From a virus, in the IMG/VR virus record IMGVR_UViG_3300045988_118171: a stretch of 47,752 bases of DNA; one strand, written 5' to 3'. The notes beneath the pieces were generated by a model. The model ran no database searches and was not told the origin of the DNA. It saw only the letters and a program-made list of their open reading frames with translations. Position 1 is the first letter of the stretch; every line of letters begins with the position of its first letter. The position numbers and the translations under genes are program-made. Below, in pieces: positions 56 through 47,697 of this stretch.

Positions 56-105
56 GTAAAGGCGGCTATTTCCGCATCCTTTTTGTTGTGAAAGGGGGAT
101 TGAAC

Positions 106-951
106 ATGAACTTGCACAAGTTACTCCTGACAAAGAACGAGTGCTATATCAGGGGGGTGCCTATCACTCCCGTTGGCGTGATGGTACACAGCACCGGGGC
201 CAACAACCCCAACCTCAGACGCTACATCCAGCCGGACGACGGCCTGCTGGGGACCAACAACGCCGGGAACCATTTCAACCAGCCGCGCCCTGGTGGCCGT
301 AAGGTTTGCGTCCATGCCATCATCGGCAAGCTGGCTGACGGTTCTATTGCCACATACCAGACGCTTCCCTGGGCTATGCGAGGCTGGCACAGCGGCACTG
401 GACCAAAGGGCAGCGCCAACAACATGGGTTACATCGGGTTTGAAATCTGCGAGGACGGTCTAACCGACCCCGTGTATTTCCGCAAGGTTTACCGGGAGGC
501 TGTCGAGCTGACCGCCTACCTCTGCAAGCTGTACAAGCTGGACCCGAAGAAGGACGGCGTTATCATCTGCCACAGTGAGGGGAATAAGCGAGGCATCGCC
601 TCCAACCATGTCGACGTAATGCACTGGTTCCCGAAGCACGGAAAGAGCATGGATACCTTCCGGGCGGACGTGGTGAAAGAAATGAGCAACAGCACCGACG
701 ACAGAGAGAAAGAAGAGGGTGACGACATGGACATCAAGAAGTTTGTCGAACAGCTGACACCTGAAATGTGTTACAGCATCATGGCCGAAGCCATGGCCTA
801 TGCAGCCAAGCAAGCAGAACCCGAATGGAGCCAGAAGGAAGGACACTGGGCCGAGGCCACTAAAAAGGGCCTTATGAACGGTTCCGCGCCTGAGGGCTAC
901 GTCAAACGGGACGAACTGGCCGCTGTTCTGGGCCGTGGGGGGCTGCTGTGA
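106..951 (+). CDS. Endolysin, N-acetylmuramoyl-L-alanine amidase (Amidase_2/PGRP type) with unassigned C-terminal domain
   Basis: ORF track 88..951; start moved to ATG 106 behind the AAAGGGGGA RBS. Motifs: VMVHSTGANNP, GYIGFEICED, ICHSEG...HVDV. Confidence 0.85.
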   Translation: MNLHKLLLTKNECYIRGVPITPVGVMVHSTGANNPNLRRYIQPDDGLLGTNNAGNHFNQPRPGGRKVCVHAIIGKLADGSIATYQTLPWAMRGWHSGTGPKGSANNMGYIGFEICEDGLTDPVYFRKVYREAVELTAYLCKLYKLDPKKDGVIICHSEGNKRGIASNHVDVMHWFPKHGKSMDTFRADVVKEMSNSTDDREKEEGDDMDIKKFVEQLTPEMCYSIMAEAMAYAAKQAEPEWSQKEGHWAEATKKGLMNGSAPEGYVKRDELAAVLGRGGLL

Positions 952-3502: not shown

Positions 3503-3593
3503 GTGCCCTTCTTTCCAATATATGCACTTTTAACAATGCCAACATTAGGAATTTGTGCATTTAGTCGATTTGTTCTTTTTGGTGTAAAAACTA

Positions 3594-3622
3594 TTGCATA
3601 TTCTGTTCTGTCGTTGTATTAT
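3594..3622 (+). promoter_or_regulatory. Sigma-70-type early promoter (TTGCAT-17-TATTAT); paralog of the promoter at 13719
   Basis: Hexamers and 17-nt spacer read directly. The downstream AGCACCATAaGGAACAAA is shared with the 13748 region. Confidence 0.55.
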
Positions 3623-3676
3623 AGCACCATAAGGAACAAACAAGATACAAAAAAGAACAATCAGGAGGAAACAGAA

Positions 3677-3877
3677 ATGAGACTTTACATTGAAGGACGC
3701 CGCAATGGCTACAGCCCAGATCAATGCGGGCACACGATGACTGTCCAGGAATTGATCGAATACCTTGAACAGTTCGACGAAGACACCGAAATCTTCTTAA
3801 AGAGCGACGGCGGATACACCTATGGCAACATCGATGAAACCAGCTTTGAGGAAAGCGACGAAGAAGACGCAGAGTGA
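3677..3877 (+). CDS. Small acidic hypothetical protein (first gene of the early operon)
   Basis: Start moved to ATG 3677 behind AGGAGG; the upstream part of track ORF 3503..3877 is AT-rich promoter DNA. C-terminus is EESDEEDAE. Confidence 0.6.
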   Translation: MRLYIEGRRNGYSPDQCGHTMTVQELIEYLEQFDEDTEIFLKSDGGYTYGNIDETSFEESDEEDAE

Positions 3878-3948
3878 CAGCCCTTCGGGGCTGGTAATGC
3901 GGGACCCGAAAGGGTGCGGTCACAACCCCGCGAGAAGGAGGAAATACC

Positions 3949-4796
3949 ATGAAGACTTTTGAGGTTGGAAAGACCTATACCATGCGAAGCATCGGCGACC
4001 ACGATTGTGTCTGGACCTATACCGTGGTCAAGCGCACCGCCAAGACCATCACTATCAGCGCCGGCCAGGAAACCAAGACCTGCCGCGTGAACGCCAAGAC
4101 TTCCGAGATCCGCAATGCCGAGAGCATCTATCCCCTGGGCCGCTACTCCATGAGCCCCGTCCTCTCTGCGGACGCCGAGGATGCCCCCGAAGAGGCTACC
4201 ATTGAGAAAGCTGCCACTGTCCCCATGAAATTCAAGAAGCAACCCAATGTTGCCTTTTTCTCCAGATACGTCCGCGAGGATGGGAAGATCACGATCACGA
4301 GCGTTGACCGCCAAATCAATGGTACATGGAAGAACGTCTTCGAGGTTACAGGCGAAAACGGCGCAGTTATTGACGTGCTTCCCCGCCTGAAAGACGCAAA
4401 AGCAAAATACGAAACTGAGCAGGGGTCCGAGGCCCCCATCGAGGCTGAAGAGGTGCAGGAAGCGCCCAAGGCTGCCGCAGAAGAAGCCCCCGACTTCAAG
4501 CTGAACCCCATGTGCGAGAAATGCGCCAACTATCCCACCGACTGCGCCGGAACCCACGAACAAGTCTGGACCGGCTGTGTCCACCGCGAGACTGCCCCTG
4601 ACGAGAACAGAACCTTTGCCCCGAAGAAGTTGCGGACCATGACCGACTCCAGGTTCTCTTTGACGAGAAACCCGACGAGGCCACCCGCGCCAAGCTGAAA
4701 CAGAACGGCTTTCGCTGGTCCCCCACGAACAGCGCATGGCAGCGCAAGCTCACCCCCAACGCGGAAATCGCAGCCCGCAGAGTTTTCGAGAAGTAA
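3949..4796 (+). CDS. Hypothetical protein with a broken reading frame (3949..4698, continuing in the -1 frame 4602..4796)
   Basis: Strong RBS. The tail of frame 1 (RTMTDSRFSLTRNPTRPPAPS) looks out of frame. The -1 frame reads EEVADHDRLQVLFDEKPDEATRAKLKQNGFRWSPTNSAWQRKLT and has no start codon of its own. Confidence 0.5.
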
Positions 4797-10666: not shown

Positions 10667-10697
10667 AGGCCCCTGGCAGTTGCCGGGGGCCTTTTTC
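10667..10697. terminator. Bidirectional terminator between the xth fragment and the integrase gene
   Basis: Stem AGGCCCC..TGGCA / TGCCG..GGGGCCT, flanked by A and T runs. Confidence 0.7.
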
Positions 10698-12238
10698 TAT
10701 TCTTTCAGGTAGACGTCCAGGTGGACTTCTCCACCCTTGTTCCTACCGAAATCAACGCAATCATATTCGATTTTTCTTACGACAGTTTTCAGCAGGTCGT
10801 TTTTGGCCTTTGCCGGTACGTCTGGATCTTCAAGCGCACTCAGCGCCTCTGATACTCTCAAGATTTTCTCCCTGTAATCCACTGGTGGTGGGAGGCTCTT
10901 TTTGATATTCTCGATGCTGCCCTGCATGGCCTCAATTCGCTCTGATAGAACGCCTTTGCGCTCCATAAATTCCTGTTTCGTATAGATGCCGGACTCCAAA
11001 AAGTCGAACAGTTTCTCTCGCTTTTGTTCGAGCTTTTTCAGTTCAACATCCATCGAGCGCAAAATTTCCTCTTGCTGCTTATTCTTTTGGGCTTCCTCGT
11101 CGTTGTTCAGCTTAAATTCAAAGTCGCTGATGTAGTCCCGCAGTGCAGCGGCCACAGCAGCCACAACATCATCGTATGGGGCCGATTTTACCTTGCACGT
11201 CAGCGATGTTCTGTGAGACATACGGCCTTTAGTTTGTCCGCCGCGATGTGCAAAATCATTGTAGCTGATCCCCTTCCCGCAGTGCTTACACACCATGAGT
11301 CTGGCGAATGGGTTTGTTATCGTCGTCTGCGCTTTTAACGGCACCTGTCCGCAAAAAAGCGTTTGTGCCTTGTCGAATATTTCCTGTGATACAATGGCCG
11401 GGTGCTTTCCGTCCACAACCATGTAATCCTCTGGTGTGAGCCTGCGCTTTCTCTTGATGGTTCTCCCGTCGCTACCTTTCTCTTTGGAGACCTTTCGCCG
11501 GTTCCATCTGATCTTTCCTGTGTACAGCGTATTTTGCAGAATGTCCTTTACTGTGGCTCGGTTCCATTCGCTTTTCCCTGTTTGTGTAGGTATGCCCATC
11601 TCGCTCAAACGCCTTGCTATCTGGCCGCAGCTTAGTCCCTCATTGACAAACCAGTCAAACATCATTTTGACGTACTGAGACTGATCATTTAATTTCAGAG
11701 TCCGTTCTTTCTTATTTATCCGAATAATGTCATAGCCGTATGGAGGAAGGGAACCCACATAGTTGCCCTCTTTGATAGATTCTATCAAGCCGCGCTGCAT
11801 CCGACGGCGGATGGTTTTATACTCTCGGCGGCTCATAAACAGGCCGAACTCGAAGTATTCTTCATCAAATTCATTGTTTGGGTCGTAGGTTTTCGTCGGC
11901 GTGACAATCAGGGTATTTGACATAGAAAATGCCTCCGCCACTTCGCCCTGATCTTTCGTATTCCCACGCGCCAGACGCTCCACTTCCATGACCAGGACCC
12001 CTGCAAACCTTCCGGCGCAAACGTCATCAAGGAGCTGCTGCATCTGCGGGCGGTCTGCAATGGACTCACCGCTGACCATTTCTTCGTAGATTCTAGTGAT
12101 CTTCAAGCCTTTTTTGTCTGCAAGCTCCAGCAAGGCTGTCCGGTGTCGGGCCAGTGTTTCACCCTCACCTAGGGCCTCAAGGTCAAGGTCCTTGCGCGAT
12201 TTCCGAAGGTAAATAGCATAGTCGTCAGGCCGTTTCAT
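10697..12238 (-). CDS. Large serine recombinase (phage integrase)
   Basis: 513 aa. N-terminal resolvase domain (AIYLRKSRKD, catalytic Ser), recombinase domain, zinc-ribbon (CKHCG) and coiled-coil region. Confidence 0.9.
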   Translation of the reverse strand: MKRPDDYAIYLRKSRKDLDLEALGEGETLARHRTALLELADKKGLKITRIYEEMVSGESIADRPQMQQLLDDVCAGRFAGVLVMEVERLARGNTKDQGEVAEAFSMSNTLIVTPTKTYDPNNEFDEEYFEFGLFMSRREYKTIRRRMQRGLIESIKEGNYVGSLPPYGYDIIRINKKERTLKLNDQSQYVKMMFDWFVNEGLSCGQIARRLSEMGIPTQTGKSEWNRATVKDILQNTLYTGKIRWNRRKVSKEKGSDGRTIKRKRRLTPEDYMVVDGKHPAIVSQEIFDKAQTLFCGQVPLKAQTTITNPFARLMVCKHCGKGISYNDFAHRGGQTKGRMSHRTSLTCKVKSAPYDDVVAAVAAALRDYISDFEFKLNNDEEAQKNKQQEEILRSMDVELKKLEQKREKLFDFLESGIYTKQEFMERKGVLSERIEAMQGSIENIKKSLPPPVDYREKILRVSEALSALEDPDVPAKAKNDLLKTVVRKIEYDCVDFGRNKGGEVHLDVYLKE

Positions 12239-20166: not shown

Positions 20167-20613
20167 ATGCAGGAACAAGACAAGATGACAAAAGAGCGCC
20201 TGGCGTCCTACATCTCTCTCAGGCTGGAGGTAGACAACCAGCTGGAGAGGTTGGCCCGCATGAGAAATGACGAGAAAATCCCAGCTATGCGAGAAAGCGA
20301 TGGGTCACAGCACAGCCCTGGCTCTGGGGATCGTATGGAGAGAGCTATCATTCGCCGCATGGAGTATGAGGACCGCGTTATGCCGCAGATCGAGGCCGCC
20401 CTGGTAGAGATGGAGACCATCGAACAGGCTATTTACGCGGTCGCAGACCCGATGGAGCGAGAGGTCCTGAGACTCCGATACATGGAGGGCAATTACATAC
20501 GGCACATGCCTTGGCGCGATGTTGCACTGAAACTATTCGGCGACGACGACAAGCGCCACATGGTAGCTACCTACCGGCTCCACACGAGAGCACTGAACAA
20601 CATCACAAGTTGA
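20167..20613 (+). CDS. Putative late-gene transcriptional regulator (sigma-70 region-4-like / ArpU-RinA-DUF1492-like)
   Basis: MEREVLRLRYMEG...WRDVALKL...TYRLHTRAL pattern. Last gene of the replication block. Confidence 0.5.
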   Translation: MQEQDKMTKERLASYISLRLEVDNQLERLARMRNDEKIPAMRESDGSQHSPGSGDRMERAIIRRMEYEDRVMPQIEAALVEMETIEQAIYAVADPMEREVLRLRYMEGNYIRHMPWRDVALKLFGDDDKRHMVATYRLHTRALNNITS

Positions 20614-20733: not shown

Positions 20734-20907
20734 ATGAAACGCAGAGATTTGATAAAGCTACTGGAGAAAAACGGTTGGTATCTAAAGCGCAATGGTGGAA
20801 ACCATGATATTTACACCAACGGGCGAGAGAACGAACCGGTCTCCAGACAGAGCGAAATCAAAGAAGACCTTGCAAAAGCAATCATCAAACGGAGAGGGCT
20901 GAAATAA
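20734..20907 (+). CDS. hicA: HicA toxin (mRNA interferase); absent from the ORF track
   Basis: Hand translation: MKRRDLIKLLEKNGWYLKRNGGNHDIYTNGRENEPVSRQSEIKEDLAKAIIKRRGLK. Classic HicA pattern; RBS AAGGGGGA. Confidence 0.85.
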   Translation: MKRRDLIKLLEKNGWYLKRNGGNHDIYTNGRENEPVSRQSEIKEDLAKAIIKRRGLK

Positions 20908-20952
20908 GCCCTCTCCACCCCCTGCACCATCAAACAAGGAGGGAAAAAGCAT

Positions 20953-21339
20953 ATGAAAAAGGCGTATCCTGTTATCTTTACCCCAGCGGCAGAGGGCGGC
21001 TTCACGTCCTATATGCCGGACTTCGATATAAACTCCCAGGGTGACGACCTGGCGGAGGCAATCGAAATGGCGCGGGACGCCATGGGGATCATGGGAATTG
21101 ATATGGAGGACGAAGGGAAAACCCTGCCGGAAGCCTCTGAGAGCGTAGCGCATAAGCCCGGTGACGTTGTGTCCTTCGTCGATGTTGACTTTACCGAGTA
21201 CCGCAGGCAGAACGATATGCGGACCGTCCGGCGGAATGTGTCGCTGCCGTCCTGGCTGAACGCCGAGGCAGACAAGGCGGGCCTGAATGTGTCCGCCGTC
21301 CTGCAAAATGCACTCCGGCAAGAGCTGAGAAAAGTTTGA
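20953..21339 (+). CDS. hicB: HicB antitoxin with C-terminal ribbon-helix-helix domain
   Basis: YPVIFTPAAEGGFTSYMPDF...GDDLAEAIEMARDA pattern, plus the C-terminal RRNVSLPSWLNAEADKAGLNVSAVLQNAL. Confidence 0.85.
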   Translation: MKKAYPVIFTPAAEGGFTSYMPDFDINSQGDDLAEAIEMARDAMGIMGIDMEDEGKTLPEASESVAHKPGDVVSFVDVDFTEYRRQNDMRTVRRNVSLPSWLNAEADKAGLNVSAVLQNALRQELRKV

Positions 21340-21361: not shown

Positions 21362-21391
21362 TTGTTTGTAATCTTATTTGCGTGGTATAGT
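21362..21391 (+). promoter_or_regulatory. Candidate extended -10 promoter (TTGTTT-18-TGgTATAGT)
   Basis: Read directly. The same TGGTATAGT occurs at 10013-10021. Confidence 0.35.
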
Positions 21392-21405
21392 ACAACCATC
21401 GGAGC

Positions 21406-21441
21406 AAGGCCGCACGGGGAAACCTGTCGCGGCCTTTTCTG
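21406..21441 (+). terminator. Terminator-like hairpin between the candidate promoter and the first late gene
   Basis: 8-bp stem AAGGCCGC / GCGGCCTT followed by TTTTCTGTT; 15 nt before the ATG at 21456. Confidence 0.5.
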
Positions 21442-21455
21442 TTGGAGGTGATAGC

Positions 21456-22118
21456 ATGGGCGGCAGCTCTGGTATTGAGAACTACGGAACCGTAATCAAA
21501 GAGATCCGGGGGATGCGTAAAGGGGCTGAGACCTGCATCAAACGAACAATGTCCGATATGCGGACCCGTGTTCCCGGTTGGGTAGCGACTGAGGTCGCCG
21601 CAGTCTACGGAATCAAGAAGGGCGAGATCACTCCGTCAAAGGCTGGCAAGGGTGGGAAAAAAGCCGGTGGCGTCCACGTCCGAGGCGAGACGATAGACTC
21701 GATAGAGGTCGTCTACACTGGCCGGGTGCTGACCCCCACGCATTTTGGTATGACACCCAAGGCTGCGCCACCGAATAGGGGCTATACCCTGAAAGCCTCT
21801 ATCCTCAAGGGTAGCAAGTCCACGCTGGGCAAGGTGAAGAAGCTCACGAAGAAGCAGAGGAAACAGATCGGGAAGAATCTCCGACGGCAAGGGACTAAGA
21901 GCAGCGACCACTCACCCATCATGCTGCTGGGGAATGGCGGGGGTGGCTCCATCCCATTCCAGCGGAAGAGCACGAACCGAAAAGACCTGGAGGTCATCAA
22001 GACTGTATCTTTGCCTCAGATGGTATCCAGTGACAGAACCAAGGACAACATCGAGAGGGCAATCAACGAGGGGTTGGAGAAGCGCCTACAGCAAAACCTA
22101 AAGCTGATCCTGAAATAG
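21456..22118 (+). CDS. Hypothetical virion protein, lambda gpZ-like (tail completion) pattern
   Basis: Start moved to ATG 21456 behind GGAGGTG. RVPGWVATEVAA... and the C-terminal IPFQRK...VIKTVSLPQM...NIERAINEGLEKRLQQNL resemble gpZ, from memory. Confidence 0.4.
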   Translation: MGGSSGIENYGTVIKEIRGMRKGAETCIKRTMSDMRTRVPGWVATEVAAVYGIKKGEITPSKAGKGGKKAGGVHVRGETIDSIEVVYTGRVLTPTHFGMTPKAAPPNRGYTLKASILKGSKSTLGKVKKLTKKQRKQIGKNLRRQGTKSSDHSPIMLLGNGGGGSIPFQRKSTNRKDLEVIKTVSLPQMVSSDRTKDNIERAINEGLEKRLQQNLKLILK

Positions 22119-22173: not shown

Positions 22174-22578
22174 GTGGAGGACACCAAGACTAAGTACAGG
22201 CTCACGCTGGCACAATACATGCAAGAGATCAAGCAGGTGGAGACAAAGGCCAAGAGGGCTATGCGTATAACTCTATGGCTCAAGATCATCCTGTCCATTG
22301 CTACTGTGTCAGCTGTTGGCGCATGGCTCAAAGGCCACGGAGCCAAGGAAGTCTGGGCATTCATTATTGTCTTGGCTGAGCTGGCCGATGCCATGATGAA
22401 CACACTGCCCTACGCAGAGCAGCGGACGAAGCTACCAGCAATGAAGATCAAGCTCACGGATGTTTACATCGAGATGGAGCACGACCTGACACGTCTGGAG
22501 AATGGGCTGATAACAGAGGACGCAGCCCTTGAGAAATACTTTGCACATAGGGACGCATGGGGGAAAGCACTCGCTTGA
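22174..22578 (+). CDS. Hypothetical two-TM membrane protein
   Basis: GTG start behind AGGAGGTGG. Helical N-terminus, two TM segments (ITLWLKIILSIATVSAVGAWL, VWAFIIVLAELADAMM) and a helical C-terminus. Confidence 0.6.
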   Translation: MEDTKTKYRLTLAQYMQEIKQVETKAKRAMRITLWLKIILSIATVSAVGAWLKGHGAKEVWAFIIVLAELADAMMNTLPYAEQRTKLPAMKIKLTDVYIEMEHDLTRLENGLITEDAALEKYFAHRDAWGKALA

Positions 22579-22585
22579 AGATTGC

Positions 22586-22624
22586 TTTTCTCTTTTTCTT
22601 TTATTTATTTTCTTTTTCTCTTTT
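22586..22624. repeat. 39-bp perfect mirror repeat; polypyrimidine on the + strand (37 of 39 C/T)
   Basis: Checked base by base around the centre at 22605: TTTTCTCTTTTTCTTTTATTTATTTTCTTTTTCTCTTTT. Confidence 0.95.
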
Positions 22625-22625
22625 T

Positions 22626-23010
22626 ACATGGCTCCTCAACGTATAGGTAACTAGGTGCGGTGCAATCCCGCAGGGAGCCACCACAGAGGGCGTGATCCTC
22701 TGGCATTTCTCATATCTCCTCCCAAGAATATATATGACCACAACCAGGTAAGGGTCACGCAGGGGAAAGCCCAGGCAGCAGCCGAGGCAATACCACCCTG
22801 TGCTCCAGTGCAATTCTGGTGAGCCTGGACCCCTCAAGGATAGGACACTGCACGAGGCCGCTGTGCTGCCCTGTGCCGCGTCGGGACACGAGGGAATGTA
22901 GTTTGACTATGCGAGAAGAAAAATGCGGCACAAGCGATTCTGCGAGGCGTGAGAGAGTTTTCGCGGGTCCTTCCGACGGTCAAACGCTACTGTGGTGCTC
23001 GCGAGCCCAT
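22626..23010 (+). ncRNA. Candidate structured non-coding RNA region (tRNA-like minihelix, T-loop hairpins); alternatively a cos/packaging region
   Basis: No credible ORF or RBS across about 500 bp in an otherwise gap-free genome. Stems listed in the findings. Strand inferred from a single G-U pair. Confidence 0.3.
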
Positions 23011-23084
23011 TTTTTGCCTAGTTTTGAAATTTTGAAAATCGGCCATTTCGTTACCACGGGCCGAACTGTAAGAGGTGGACAACC

Positions 23085-23882
23085 GTGAAAAACATAGCTG
23101 CAATCAACCAGGAACGCAGGCGCATTGATGCCCTGAAACCTGCGGAGTACAATCCGAGGAAACGGCTGCAACCTGGGGACTCTGAGTACGAAGCTCTGAA
23201 ACGGAGCATCGAGACGTTTGGCTACGTTGATCCTATTATCGTCAACAAAGACGGTACAGTGATCGGCGGACACCAACGTCTTTTTGTTTTGGCTGACCTG
23301 GGATTCCTTGAAGCCGACGTTGCCGTTGTGGACCTCAACAAGCAGGACGAAAAGGCCCTGAACATTGCCTTGAATAAGATCAGCGGCGAATGGGATGAGG
23401 AAAAACTGGCGGCCATTTTCTCCGAGTTGAAACTGGATGGATACGACGCCACTGTTTCCGGCTTCCAGGATGACGAGATTGCCAGCCTCATCTCTGGGGT
23501 GGTGGCCGAGGAAGCCGAGGCTGCCGAGCAGTACAGCCGAAAGGTGGACGTCCCACACTACGAGATTACCGGGGAGACCCCAAAAATCAGCGAACTGTTC
23601 GACCAGTCAAAGGCCCTGGCTCTGCTGGACGACATCGAGAGCGACGGAAGCATCAGCGAAGAGGAACGGGAGTTCCTGAAACTTGCTTCCATGCGTCACG
23701 TCGTTTTTAATTACCGAAACATCGCCGAGTATTACGCCGCCGCCAGTCCTGCGATGCAGGGACTTATGGAAGATTCAGCCCTTGTGATCATCGATGTGGA
23801 CAGAGCGATTGCCAACGGCTATGTAGACCTGTCCAAAGTTGTTGAGGGCATTCTTGCTGACGGAGATGCTGACGGTGCGTGA
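23085..23882 (+). CDS. ParB-like N-terminal (ParB/Srx nuclease-fold) domain protein with unassigned C-terminal domain
   Basis: GTG start behind AGAGGTGG. Motifs LKPAEYNPR, FGYVDPIIVNKDGTVIGGHQRL, NKISGEWD. Confidence 0.75.
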   Translation: MKNIAAINQERRRIDALKPAEYNPRKRLQPGDSEYEALKRSIETFGYVDPIIVNKDGTVIGGHQRLFVLADLGFLEADVAVVDLNKQDEKALNIALNKISGEWDEEKLAAIFSELKLDGYDATVSGFQDDEIASLISGVVAEEAEAAEQYSRKVDVPHYEITGETPKISELFDQSKALALLDDIESDGSISEEEREFLKLASMRHVVFNYRNIAEYYAAASPAMQGLMEDSALVIIDVDRAIANGYVDLSKVVEGILADGDADGA

Positions 23883-24738
23883 CGACTTTGCTGTCTTTAT
23901 CTTGACACATGGCAGGGCTGATAACGTAGTTACGCTCAGGACCCTGGAGCGGCAGGGGTACAGAGGACGTTGGTACCTGATTATCGACGACGAGGACGCC
24001 ATGGCTCCGATTTACTATGAGAAATTCGGGAAGGATCACGTCGTCACATTCTGCAAGGCTGCTGCTGCCGACAGAACTGACACCATGGACAACTTCAACG
24101 AGCATCGAGCTATTCTGTACGCCAGGAATGAGAGCTTCCGAATTGCGCGGGAGCTTGGACTGATGTATTTTTTGCAGCTCGACGATGACTACTCCATTTT
24201 TATGCTCAGGTATCCTGATGGCAGTAAATTGGCCCACTTGACGCTCACGGGAAAAAACCTGGAGACGCTATTCGAGGCTATGATCGACTTTCTGGATTCC
24301 TCTGGGGCGCTGACCGTGGCGCTGGCTCAAGGCGGCGACTATATTGGGGGCCTTGCCGGTGGCGCTTACGAAAAACGCTTGCTGCGTAAGGCCATGAACA
24401 CGTTTTTCTGCCGAACTGACCGCCCGATAGAGTTCCGAGGGACCATGAACGAGGATGTTACGACATATACCACGCTGGGGAGCCGGGGGGACTTGTTCTT
24501 CACTGTCGCGGATGCCTGCATTGCTCAGTTGCAGACACAATCTCTGAGCGGCGGCATGAGCGAGGCGTATTCTGAATCTGGGACCTACTTAAAAACTTTC
24601 TATTCGGTCATGTCTATGCCGTCCTGCATCAAGGTCAGCATAATGGGAGAAGGACACAAACGCATCCACCACAGAATCAACTGGGAGTGCTGCGTCCCTA
24701 AAATCCTGGACGAAAAATACAGAAAGGACGTTGACTGA
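23866..24738 (+). CDS. GT-A-fold-like glycosyltransferase candidate (family not recognised with certainty)
   Basis: FAVFILTHGRADNVVT beta-strand start, YFLQLDDDY (DxD) motif, about 290 aa. Start uncertain (23839, 23866 or 23876). Confidence 0.4.
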   Translation: MLTVRDDFAVFILTHGRADNVVTLRTLERQGYRGRWYLIIDDEDAMAPIYYEKFGKDHVVTFCKAAAADRTDTMDNFNEHRAILYARNESFRIARELGLMYFLQLDDDYSIFMLRYPDGSKLAHLTLTGKNLETLFEAMIDFLDSSGALTVALAQGGDYIGGLAGGAYEKRLLRKAMNTFFCRTDRPIEFRGTMNEDVTTYTTLGSRGDLFFTVADACIAQLQTQSLSGGMSEAYSESGTYLKTFYSVMSMPSCIKVSIMGEGHKRIHHRINWECCVPKILDEKYRKDVD

Positions 24739-25697
24739 TGCTAGGAATCACTGGCGACAAGATGCTGTCGCACCTTGACAGGATCGTCGGAGACCACAGG
24801 CCCATAACAGCCGACGTGTTTCTGACCAACTACTGCAACAACAGTTGCCCGTACTGCACATACCGTCGCTGGAACCTGGAGGACGGCGCGTACTCGATGG
24901 GCTATGACGAATTTGTCCTGTATGCTGAACGGCTGCTGTCGTTTGGAGTGCAGGGCATTATCCTGACCGGGGGCGGAGAACCTACCGTCTGCCGGGATTT
25001 TGAAAAGATCACGGCATGGATGGAGTCGCGCTCAATTCACTACGGAATCAACACGAATCTCAATCGGATGGTCCGTATCAAGCCTGACTATCTCAAGGTC
25101 AGTTTGGACGGCTGGGACGAGGATAGCTACGCCGAGCGCCGGGGCGTCCGGCATTATCAGCTCGCACGAAAAAATATCCAGGCGTATGCAGCATGGAAGC
25201 GAGAGAACAGCCCTAGTACGTCCCTGGGTATCCAGTGTGTGGTCAAATCTGTGGAAGATGTGGAAAAGTTCTTCTCTGCCAATAGGGATTTGGACGTTGA
25301 CTACATCGTTTTCAGGCCGGAAGAAAGCACCGGCGGGAAAGCCTACGCTGGGGAATCTGCGCGGGCGACTGCTGCTGAAATTATTCAGGCCGTGAATAAT
25401 CTTACAGAGATAGACAGCCGTGTTGTGTGCAATTTCAAGTGGCATTTGCTGGGCGTCCAGGAGCGCGATTGCGTGGCTGCCTGGTCGCAAATAGCCATGA
25501 ATGAGCGTGGCGGCATTATGTTCTGCTGCCACAAGCCGTACCAAGTCCTGGGCCACATTATGGACGAGGATATTCTGGAGAAAAAGGCGGCTGCTGTAAC
25601 GGATATGCGAACCTGCGATGTTCCGTGTAGGCTGACAGCGCCAAACGCTTTTGTAGCCAGCACAATGGCTGAGAGAAAGGACGCTTGTTTTTTATGA
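24738..25697 (+). CDS. Radical SAM enzyme with a SPASM/twitch-like C-terminal Cys pattern
   Basis: CNNSCPYC (Cx3Cx2C), LTGGGEPT, then C-x13-G-x4-C (DCVAAWSQIAMNERGGIMFCC) and CDVPC. TGATG overlap with the upstream gene. Confidence 0.85.
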   Translation: MLGITGDKMLSHLDRIVGDHRPITADVFLTNYCNNSCPYCTYRRWNLEDGAYSMGYDEFVLYAERLLSFGVQGIILTGGGEPTVCRDFEKITAWMESRSIHYGINTNLNRMVRIKPDYLKVSLDGWDEDSYAERRGVRHYQLARKNIQAYAAWKRENSPSTSLGIQCVVKSVEDVEKFFSANRDLDVDYIVFRPEESTGGKAYAGESARATAAEIIQAVNNLTEIDSRVVCNFKWHLLGVQERDCVAAWSQIAMNERGGIMFCCHKPYQVLGHIMDEDILEKKAAAVTDMRTCDVPCRLTAPNAFVASTMAERKDACFL

Positions 25698-46123: not shown

Positions 46124-47017
46124 TTATGCAACTTCCAACAAACTGCGGTAATCCATTGGTGCAAGGCAATTTAGACGATGCTGACGCCGTTGGTAGTTGT
46201 AGTAATGAATGAATTGTCCTACCGCATCCACAAGCTCTTCATAGGTTTCAAAATGGTTGAGATAATACATTTCACACTTCAGGATGCCCCAGAAGCCCTC
46301 CATCGGGCCATTGTCAATACATCTGCCAACACGGGACATACTTTGCCGCATTCCCTGTTTTTCCAGCATATCCTTGAACTGCCTGTTCGTGTACTGGAAT
46401 CCCCGGTCACTGTGAAATAATGGGTGTGCATCCGGGTACTTCTGGATTGCCAAATCAAAGGTCTCAAATACGAGCTGGTTGTTGTTGTGCCTGCCAATTG
46501 CAAAGGAAACGATATCTCTACCCTTCAAGTCCAGAATGGCACTGAGATAGGCTTTCCCACCCTCAGAGCCATATTTCATTTCTGTAACATCGGTGCACCA
46601 TTTCTCGTTTACGGTGTTGGCTGTGAATTCTCTGTTCAGAATATTTTCGACAGTTACTTCCGGCTTAGACCGCTGGTATGCCGGACGTTTTCTGCGGATG
46701 ACAGCAAGAAGGCCGACAATATGTACCAATCGATAGAACCGTTTCAGGTTGTACTGTTTTTCATGGGTAGCGTTGTACTCGTCCGCAATTCGGCGGTAGC
46801 CATAGGTTCCGTTGTGTTCGGCGTAGATCAAGCCAATATCGTGCAGCAAAGCCTCGTTCTCAAGCTCGCTGCTGCTCTTGGATCGGTGTGTCCATTTATA
46901 GTAACTGGAACGATTCAGGTTCAGAATGTCACAAGTCTCGGTGATTGCATACGCCTCTTCGTGCATTTTCTGAACACAAATGTAGAGATATTCCTGTCTT
47001 ACTACGCTCAGCGCCAC
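46124..47017 (-). CDS. IS3-family transposase OrfB (DDE / rve integrase domain)
   Basis: WCTDVTE...HSDRGFQYT...DNGPMEGFWG motifs. Confidence 0.9.
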   Translation of the reverse strand: MALSVVRQEYLYICVQKMHEEAYAITETCDILNLNRSSYYKWTHRSKSSSELENEALLHDIGLIYAEHNGTYGYRRIADEYNATHEKQYNLKRFYRLVHIVGLLAVIRRKRPAYQRSKPEVTVENILNREFTANTVNEKWCTDVTEMKYGSEGGKAYLSAILDLKGRDIVSFAIGRHNNNQLVFETFDLAIQKYPDAHPLFHSDRGFQYTNRQFKDMLEKQGMRQSMSRVGRCIDNGPMEGFWGILKCEMYYLNHFETYEELVDAVGQFIHYYNYQRRQHRLNCLAPMDYRSLLEVA

Positions 47018-47682
47018 CTCCTTTCGAGTTCCTCGAGTTTTTTTAGCACTGCATTCTCCGTTTCCAATCTTCTGTTTCGGGCTTCCAGCATCCGGTTCTC
47101 GGCGCGCAGTTTCTCCACTTCTGTCATCTCAGATTCGGCCTTACGTTTACCACGCTTGTCTACCAGACCTTCCGCACCTTTCTCGTTGTATTTCCTGACC
47201 CATGAATAGATTTGCTGGTAACTCACTCCGTACTTCTCGATCGTGGCAGGGTAGTCATTTCCGTGCTCGATGCAGTAGCTGACAATTTCAATCCGTTCTT
47301 CGTATGTCGTAGTCCGTCCTTTGGTCATATAGATATCACTCCCTCGGCCGCTGCTGGGCCGTAATTCCTTATGACCATTATACATCTTAATCCAGTTTTG
47401 CAACTGTGTTCTTGATGAAATTCCGTACTTTTTACAGATTGCTGCGTAACTCCCTTCTCCGTTAAGATAGGCTTGTACAGCAGATTCCTTTAACTCTGAT
47501 GAATATTTTCTATTTCCTGTATTCTTAAATCCTTCTGCGCCAAATGTTTCATATCTTCTTATCCAGTCCTGAAACGTTCGATGATGTACTCCCTGCTTTT
47601 TTGCTTCTGCGTTCTGGCTCGTTTCTCCTCTCTTGTATCGTTCTACGGCTTTAATGATTTTGTCTATATTTTCTTTAGGCAT
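47008..47682 (-). CDS. IS3-family transposase OrfA (double HTH plus leucine-zipper-like tail)
   Basis: Start moved to the second ATG (47682) behind GGGGAG. HTH repeats and the C-terminal LEARNRRLETENAVLKKLEELE. Confidence 0.85.
   Translation of the reverse strand: MPKENIDKIIKAVERYKRGETSQNAEAKKQGVHHRTFQDWIRRYETFGAEGFKNTGNRKYSSELKESAVQAYLNGEGSYAAICKKYGISSRTQLQNWIKMYNGHKELRPSSGRGSDIYMTKGRTTTYEERIEIVSYCIEHGNDYPATIEKYGVSYQQIYSWVRKYNEKGAEGLVDKRGKRKAESEMTEVEKLRAENRMLEARNRRLETENAVLKKLEELERRWR
47038..47044 (-). promoter_or_regulatory. A7 slippery site for -1 frameshifting that produces the OrfAB transposase
   Basis: The - strand reads CTA AAA AAA CTC. The -1 frame continues KKTRGTRKEVALSVVRQEY into OrfB. 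Confidence 0.7.
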
Positions 47683-47697
47683 AATAATACTCCCCAT

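Follow-up and report, generated by a model that had tools for sequence, protein, structure and literature searches.

The non-coding block and its parts

The stretch of viral DNA analysed here (IMG/VR record IMGVR_UViG_3300045988_118171, 47,752 nt, referred to as the window) represents a whole, circularly permuted temperate phage. The largest gap on a crude map of its open reading frames (ORFs), 506 nt at positions 22579-23084, lies between the TGA stop codon (22576-22578) of a gene for a 134-amino acid (aa) protein with two transmembrane segments (2-TM) and the GTG start codon at 23085 of a ParB-like gene. This block is a composite and not one large RNA: from left to right it holds a polypyrimidine mirror repeat, a tRNA-like minihelix, a GC hairpin, a pyrimidine 'CU box', a pseudoknotted RNA motif, a spacer, and a predicted lambda-type cos region, followed by the ribosome-binding site (RBS) of the ParB-like gene (Table 1). 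Just one of these sub-segments, the pseudoknotted motif, is demonstrably structured.

The original prediction, made from the letters of the window, had described the block as a non-coding region in a genome otherwise nearly free of gaps, and the first part of this description is borne out. The two ORFs listed in the block (22601-22837 on the minus strand and 22819-23088 on the plus strand), which had been dismissed as non-protein, match no PHROG family, and both are broken by indels in near-identical relatives: there is a frameshifting 1-nt deletion at ~22897 in the relative L004 and another near 22724 in L005 and L007, and in the latter two the left part of the block is swapped for a tRNA. 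This pattern of indels and replacement indicates that the block does not evolve like a coding region, and a hidden protein gene was rejected on the frameshifts together with the lack of PHROG matches. Micro-ORFs on the minus strand that follow 'GGAGG', the complement of the CU box, were also rejected, being unconserved between subfamilies and running antisense through tRNAs. In contrast, the claim that gaps elsewhere measure 0-60 bp was overstated, as further gaps of 176, 247, and 358 nt appear on the same map; and of the supposed richness in GC and in stems, the former holds (GC content of 0.58 in the centre vs ~0.50-0.55 around it), whereas the latter fails for the block as a whole, where the minimum free energy (MFE) gives no signal. 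The repeats that were said to frame the block are both there, a perfect mirror repeat on the left and two copies of TTTTGAAA on the right, and a repeat search of the block yielded no long repeats besides the mirror tract. Promoter and terminator scans found nothing on its plus strand.

A blastn search of the block against 50,697 GenBank phages gave no match. Six IMG/VR relatives were reached via the flanking genes, and nhmmer and blastn searches of 137 ParB-anchored loci recovered these six close relatives and nothing else. Over the block, four of them share ~98% identity with the window, and the remaining two share 89% with it at 22672-23084. Identity between these two groups is patchy, amounting to ~97% at 22727-22842 and 100% at 22990-23062, with the spacer between these patches the most divergent, while the flanking genes are 82-92% identical. 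The spacer has no homologue outside the close relatives and no fold signal (z-score of +1.12).

The mirror repeat is unchanged among the relatives save for a 3-nt insertion in L002, though its flanks differ in L005 and L007; it may act as a U/C-rich RNA leader or as H-DNA-forming DNA. The minihelix that follows, GGCUCCU...UGCGG-UGCAAUC-CCGCA-GGGAGCC-ACCA in the window and its four closest relatives, folds by MFE into an acceptor stem and a T-arm with the loop UGCAAUC, and it has neither a D arm nor an anticodon arm, so that the cloverleaf is incomplete; ARAGORN called no tRNA or tmRNA anywhere in the window. In L005 and L007 the slot matching window positions 22625-22690 is taken up by an entire tRNA-Met(CAT), and the identical flanks of this slot point to cassette exchange and not to simple decay. 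An earlier remark on tRNA-like neighbours of large phage RNAs was therefore apt, since the minihelix ends 46 nt upstream of the motif and a real tRNA-Met stands there in relatives.

Table 1. Coordinates of the parts of the block and of selected phage genes in the window
Feature	Position	Strand	Remark
Perfect polypyrimidine mirror repeat, 39 nt	22586-22624	+	Centre at 22605; directly 3' of the 2-TM gene stop codon
tRNA-like minihelix	22630-22683	+	Acceptor stem 22630-22636/22673-22679, T-arm 22656-22672, ACCA 22680-22683
GC hairpin CAGAGG-GCGUGAU-CCUCUG	22684-22702	+	Begins right after ACCA
Pyrimidine 'CU box' CUCCUCCC	22716-22723	+	Complementary to Shine-Dalgarno sequence; resembles 16S rRNA 3' tail
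Pseudoknotted RNA motif, 101 nt	22730-22830	+	Covariance model R1
Motif helix A	22735-22739/22753-22757	+	
Motif helix B	22744-22748/22824-22828	+	
Motif P3 variable hairpin	22758-22802	+	
Motif hairpin D	22805-22808/22816-22819	+	T-loop-like loop UGCAAUU at 22809-22815
GC-rich spacer, motif to cos	22831-22987	+	Lineage-specific; ~83% identity, the most variable part between groups of relatives
Predicted lambda-type cos region	22988-23055	.	Box order and conservation
cos: TACTGTG	22988-22994		
cos: GC box GGTGCTCGCGAGCCC	22994-23008		Candidate cosN
cos: T-run	23010-23015		
cos: GCCTAGTT	23016-23023		
cos: direct repeats TTTTGAAA x2	23022-23037		
cos: CCATTTCGTTACC	23043-23055		Candidate terS-binding R site
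RBS AAGAGGTGGA and GTG start of the ParB-like gene	23070-23087	+	
Endolysin gene	88-951		
Serine integrase gene	10697-12238	-	
phrog_36 late-regulator-like gene	20167-20613		
HicA toxin and HicB antitoxin genes	20734-21339		Between the late-regulator gene and the block

Structure and distribution of the pseudoknotted RNA motif

The motif almost certainly represents a real family of structured RNAs. Its consensus, derived from a MAFFT alignment of 40 distinct sequences, reads AUA-[WGAYC]-ACAR-[NNNGG]-UAAG-[GRUCW]-[P3 variable hairpin]-C-[hairpin D, loop UGNRAUU]-UGAG-[CCNNN] and describes an H-type pseudoknot, in which helices A and B cross and the long loop holds P3 and hairpin D. Across these sequences 96.3% of the 838 cells of the four helices are paired; all four helices covary, with 15 of the 21 pairs changed on both sides (pair 6-29 of helix A is A-U in 21 sequences and U-A in 19), and the junctions ACA, GG-UAAG-G, and UGAG are invariant. 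None of 500 shuffles was as good as the observed pairing, and slid controls pair in 28-47% of cells. The RNA is read from the plus strand, as reading the opposite strand would turn 67 G.U cells into A.C mismatches. The structured RNA anticipated in the block is thus strongly supported by covariation, but instead of being large and ornate it is a compact pseudoknot of 101 nt.

The loop of hairpin D has the T-loop form U-N-N-R-A and caps a covarying helix, with U1 and A5 invariant, position 3 free, and a purine at position 4. Among the 70 of 72 distinct sequences that could be parsed, it reads UGCAAUU in 61, UGCGAUU in four, UGAAAUU in two, and UGAAAGU, UGGAAUU, and UGUAAUU in one each. A separate 40-bit variant in four loci (L174, L183, L196, and L214; e.g., L174 2257-2328) keeps helix A, the UAAGG junction, and P3, and has a different 3' half without hairpin D.

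The window contains a single copy (model R1, 84.2 bits, E 1.4e-19). A 21-mer from the conserved patch was found in 32 IMG/VR stretches of unrelated phages, and another, independent seed, taken from the opposite half of the motif, in 78 IMG/VR stretches and in the genomes of 30 bacterial species, all of them Oscillospiraceae or other Clostridia. A cmsearch with R1 then covered IMG/VR phage contigs and Oscillospiraceae prophages and yielded 110 copies of 68-103 nt, representing 72 distinct sequences. Anaerotruncus colihominis DSM 17241 has one copy, in a prophage (NZ_CP102255, about 791,967-792,053), and none beside its rRNA operons, and the motif was accordingly rejected as a 16S-23S spacer element that phages took over from the host. 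No copy was seen in 150 other sampled genomes of the host's order, where 29 candidates were scored per genome, a result that speaks for rarity and not for absence.

The surroundings of the motif fall into a few recurrent patterns. In about 32 distinct contexts a Nu1-like terS gene begins 23-400 nt 3' of it, and in about 10 a tRNA (Met, Thr, Gly, Leu, or Trp) begins 2-5 nt past the end of the model. Since tRNA-to-tRNA spacers in the same arrays are likewise 1-5 nt long in 11 of 27 cases, the motif behaves as a further member of the array; on its upstream side, the distance to the end of the preceding tRNA is 30-50 nt. Across 57 distinct contexts, the motif is as a rule preceded by a hairpin whose sequence varies (mean z-score of -1.49 vs -0.46 in control regions), and this hairpin begins at the CCA end of the upstream tRNA wherever there is one. 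Between this hairpin and the motif stands the CU box: in 52 of the 57 contexts, vs 11% of control windows, CUCC, CCUC, or UCCU occurs in the 22 nt preceding the motif, and in many contexts the box reads CCUCCUUUCU, the complement of strong RBSs and similar to the 16S rRNA 3' tail.

Downstream, a strong terminator hairpin separates the motif from terS in a subgroup comprising A. colihominis, L142, L182, L189, L203, L206, and L217. The segment immediately past the motif in these loci (for A. colihominis, L253 1576-1620, NZ_CP102255 about 792,040-792,090) consists of an A-run, a GC hairpin, and, in some of them, a U-run, and could be a terminator acting on the minus strand or on both strands.

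The tRNA-array phages of 84-124 kb, two of which are at least 95% complete, carry the motif and no gpA-type terminase. The RNA module is therefore independent of lambda-type packaging and is not a sub-site of cos; the motif was rejected as a cosB DNA element on the same ground and because it tolerates G.U but not A.C pairs. Several other RNA genes were noticed near the motif. In phages of 76-141 kb, 116-nt Rfam tRNA matches flank it (L139 3717-3832 and 4172-4287; also L146, L154-L156, and L163) and look like tRNA genes with ~45-nt intron-like insertions, and an aberrant tRNA-like gene, uncalled by ARAGORN, begins 12 nt past it. A mini-tRNA made of an acceptor stem and a T-arm only follows the motif directly in L181, and GP20-b (RF03003; L181 4010-4071, minus strand) and gut-2 (RF02990; L166 7230-7277 and 7397-7459, plus strand) share RNA-rich regions with it.

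Known RNA families do not account for the motif. Rfam 15 at gathering thresholds returned Twister-P5 at 3868-3931 and nothing else in the whole window, and at E<=10 it gave two chance-level matches in the region 22400-23250, with nothing overlapping the motif; a search of seven diverse motif-bearing loci at E<=1 likewise placed no family on it. The Twister-P5 match (RF02684, 55.8 bits, E 5e-09, plus strand) is a self-cleaving ribozyme; it sits where ORF 3503-3877 ends and is antisense to ORF 3820-4737. The families to which the original prediction had pointed, ROOL, GOLLD, raiA, group I/II introns, and tmRNA, give no match even at E<=10. ROOL (RF03087) and GOLLD (RF01998), which resemble the motif in their association with phages and prophages of Firmicutes and in having tRNA neighbours, but are ornate RNAs of 500-800 nt, are thereby excluded as far as covariance models can see. 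The RNase P RNA model (RF00010) has no match in the window region or in seven motif-bearing loci, although it does find the genuine A. colihominis gene. An HDV-like (hepatitis delta virus-like) or theta ribozyme was rejected on the helix order (A-B-A'-P3-D-B' vs P1-P2-P3-P1-P4-P2), on the wrong side of the tRNA, and on the lack of an Rfam HDV-type match. A literature search by sequence words and topic found no description of the motif, and the family is apparently uncatalogued. It is common to small lambda-like temperate phages and to the 76-141-kb tRNA-array phages of gut Clostridia, and a cultured host with a single prophage copy exists in A. colihominis DSM 17241.

The probable cos region and the cassette before terS

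The right end of the block is probably a cos site, judging from the order of its boxes, their conservation, and the type of the neighbouring terminase. The patch 22990-23062 is fully conserved in relatives that are 89% identical overall, and a series of boxes, AAAAGGTACTGTGAC ... GCGGGCTCGnCGACCCC, an A/T tract, CGCCTAGTTA, ~10 nt, A/T plus CGG, and (C)ATTTCGTTAC, recurs in more than 25 phages. The left end of lambda (NC_001416) presents its counterparts in the same order: GGGCGGCGACCTCGCGGG, TTTT, CGCTATTTA, ... TTTTCCGG ..., and TTTCCGTTC (the R3 site). When lambda bases 1-75 are aligned with the window and nine other phages, lambda base 1 coincides with the start of the GC box, and the likeness over bases 1-70 extends to the GC box, the A/T tract, CGC(C)TA(G)TT, A/T plus CGG, and TTTC(C)GTT. 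What would be the GC-rich nicking region, the A/T tract, and the terS-binding repeats thus follow one another as they do in lambda. Contig ends hint at this placement: the L150 contig ends no more than 1 nt from the GC box start and the L216 contig 3-4 nt before it, the two being unrelated.

As in lambda, the site lies upstream of a Nu1-like terS and a terL with GpA_ATPase and GpA_nuclease domains. The terS product matches phrog_57 and aligns to residues 8-99 of lambda Nu1, the DNA-binding N-terminus, with 28% identity over 92 aa, and the two domains of terL are found with PF05876 and PF20454 (E 1e-77 to 1e-82). The proposal that a cos site stands at the start of the packaging operon is accordingly well supported for the right end of the block. 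Between cos and terS there is a 2.6-kb cassette (23085-25697), present in the window's clade only, which encodes a ParB-like N-terminal-domain protein, a TET-associated glycosyltransferase (TAGT; PF20691, E 6e-42), and a radical-SAM protein, and is a candidate DNA hypermodification module. The suggestion that this trio was inserted between cos and terS gains support from more than 25 phages that have the same cos and terS type without the cassette, their terS beginning 23-400 nt past the motif.

The order cos, motif, terS prevails among the phages, whereas the motif comes first, ahead of cos and then terS, in L160, L224, L241, and L248 and in the window's clade. This exchange of places indicates that cos and the motif are separate modules, and the latter order fits late transcription passing through cos, as it does in lambda. 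Apart from the cassette, the window site differs from lambda cos in its Clostridia (Oscillospiraceae-type) host and in the RNA motif and tRNA-like units that adjoin it. The assignment would carry lambda's cos grammar to Clostridia phages, with a putative DNA-modification cassette interposed between cos and terS.

The block as a proposed late leader and the competing explanations

We consider the block as a whole likely to be the untranslated head of the late (packaging and structural) transcription unit combined with the DNA packaging site. The neighbouring genes are all on the plus strand. Following the integrase gene are, in gene order, RecT, a DnaD-like loader, a methyltransferase, and RusA; the ParB-like, TET-associated glycosyltransferase, radical-SAM, Nu1-like terS, and gpA-type terL genes come after the block, and portal, protease, major head protein, tape measure, baseplate, and insertion sequence (IS) transposase genes downstream of terL. 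The block therefore lies 3' of the RusA and late-activator genes and 5' of the packaging, head, and tail genes, an arrangement that places it at the start of the late operon. Phage annotation leaves this region, the leader between late regulator and terminase genes, blank, and the present reading would provide it with an anatomy.

Late transcription would traverse the block from end to end and, where the DNA is circular or concatemeric, continue across cos as it does in lambda. Enzymes of tRNA processing would trim the tRNA-like units, and the unit made of the hairpin, the CU box, and the pseudoknot would either be cut from the late transcript or be kept as a compact, nuclease-resistant 5' module of the downstream RNA. 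Its bounds would be set by tRNA-processing sites in arrays and by the terminator in one subgroup, and in another it would stay attached to the terS mRNA. The single-stranded CU box may pair with Shine-Dalgarno sequences. Finally, terminase, with terS on the ATTTCGTTAC-type site and terL on the GC box, would cut at ~22994-23008 to produce the virion ends. That the motif serves processing or stability, giving the late RNA a stable 'punctuation' or leader unit, is put forward only tentatively. Some precedent exists in other phages: the species 1 and 2 RNAs of T4 are stable small RNAs co-encoded with phage tRNA clusters, and tRNA genes occur in lambdoid late leaders. Like the T4 RNAs, the motif is a non-tRNA structured RNA set flush between tRNAs with tRNA-like spacers, and, like the lambdoid tRNA genes, it sits in a late-operon leader; in contrast to the former, to which it has no known relation in sequence or structure, it also forms a terS 5' leader without a tRNA.

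Several observations weigh against this picture or its parts. The whole block has no thermodynamic fold signal (MFE z-scores of +0.61 on the plus strand and -1.04 on the minus strand), and the motif alone reaches just -1.34, a weak value explained by the inability of an MFE fold to form the pseudoknot. In the largest subgroup the motif lies ~13-20 nt before the RBS of terS with no tRNA near, so that excision is only presumed there. As to cos, the L216 contig has its opposite end away from the site, which makes the contig-end evidence suggestive at most, and in the window's clade TACTGTG abuts the GC box without the 20-25-nt spacer of other phages. The novelty of the motif is also open to doubt, as the 10,006 unnamed candidates of PMC10690425 may already include it.

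Other functions of the motif can be envisaged. Its place where the late operon starts, past the late-activator gene, would suit a cis-acting RNA of processive antitermination, similar to HK022 put or Bacillus EAR, that lets polymerase pass terminators, tRNA structures, and cos on its way into the long late operon; the strong terminator hairpin between the motif and terS in the A. colihominis subgroup and the many invariant unpaired nucleotides, as expected for an RNA bound by a protein or by polymerase, agree with this. However, cleavage by RNase P in tRNA arrays, 4-7 nt downstream, would break the link between the motif and polymerase, the largest subgroup has no following terminator, and no likeness to EAR or any other Rfam model is seen, so that we regard antitermination as unlikely. 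A self-cleaving ribozyme trimming phage RNAs, a 5'-side counterpart of the theta ribozymes, is in our view highly improbable. Theta ribozymes, which are minimal HDV-like ribozymes with the HDV nested double pseudoknot, mature tRNAs in gut phages from the 3' ends, with cleavage sites within +/-5 nt (PMC10879173); the motif is likewise a small pseudoknotted RNA beside tRNA genes in phages of the human and animal gut, with invariant junction nucleotides in its core, it abuts the 5' ends of tRNAs, and the window phage has a twister ribozyme elsewhere. Its helix order is another one, though; its topology is unlike that of HDV-like, twister, pistol, hatchet, and hammerhead ribozymes, none of whose models match, no candidate cleavage dinucleotide is conserved at a constant spacing from tRNA +1, the majority of copies lack a tRNA, and cleavage activity is not known. 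Docking of the tRNA elbow by a pair of T-loops, either to clamp a pre-tRNA in cis or tRNAs in trans for processing or protection, or to sense tRNA in the terS leader, appears unlikely as well. Interdigitated T-loop modules have been put to this use convergently in the RNase P S-domain (CR-II/CR-III), the distal end of T-box Stem I, and the 23S L1 stalk, and more RNAs of this kind are expected (PMC4810234). Hairpin D has the T-loop signature U-G-N-R-A-U-U; the GG-UAAGG junction and the UGCAA loop are identical to helix-flanked pentamers of A. colihominis RNase P RNA (GCGG-UAAGG and AAAG-UGCAA), so the motif shares with these modules a helix-capped UGNRA loop and a helix-flanked UAAGG junction; and it is physically near tRNAs in phage arrays, where they start 4-7 nt past helix B in about 10 independent contexts. 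On the other side, such short spacing is the ordinary tRNA-to-tRNA spacing and needs no special explanation, most copies have no tRNA within 1.5 kb, the order of the pentamers is reversed relative to RNase P, and they sit in a 68-103-nt H-type pseudoknot that matches no RNase P or T-box model; the resemblance is one of sequence. It is doubtful, then, that the motif is a fourth natural class of RNA recognising the tRNA elbow by a T-loop pair, after the L1 stalk, RNase P, and T-boxes. If it were, phages would possess a 'tRNA clamp' of ~70-100 nt in tRNA precursors and in the terS leader, which might steer the maturation of phage tRNA 5' ends by the host or take its place, or else might tie the expression of late genes to the condition of the tRNA pool. 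With its T-loop hairpin, its junction words like those of RNase P, and its behaviour in tRNA slots, the motif is a testable candidate for a new link between phage late expression and the tRNA-processing machinery.

The conserved patch 22990-23062 could also be something other than cos, namely a late promoter or operator, or a parS-like site for the adjacent ParB-like protein, whose gene it directly precedes. The direct repeats in the patch would be in keeping with this, and the cos reading itself is derived from sequence. Nevertheless, this interpretation has little probability: the box series is found in more than 25 phages without the ParB cassette, always beside a Nu1-like terS, and follows the order of the lambda cosN-to-R3 region; the A/T tract varies between an A-run and a T-run from phage to phage, which suggests a feature of double-stranded DNA; and no sigma-70-like promoter is predicted on the plus strand of the block. 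That all 506 nt form one large ornate RNA of the ROOL or GOLLD type, or hide a protein gene, is barely credible. The size of the gap and its place beside tRNA-like sequences in a Firmicutes phage had suggested as much; against it stand the lack of an Rfam match, the flat fold signal of the whole block, the sub-blocks that differ in phylogenetic distribution and are rearranged among phages, and the frameshifting indels in ORFs without PHROG matches. The reading of the block as a late leader joined to a probable cos site is the one that we prefer.

Two further features of the phage were noted outside the block. A 246-aa protein encoded at 21378-22118, just upstream of the block and far from the structural genes, has a weak match to phrog_27, 'tail completion/Neck1' (E 3e-14). 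The interval 46124-47697 on the minus strand, inside the phage and past the tail-fibre genes, holds an IS-type transposase (phrog_157, E 9e-86) together with another ORF.

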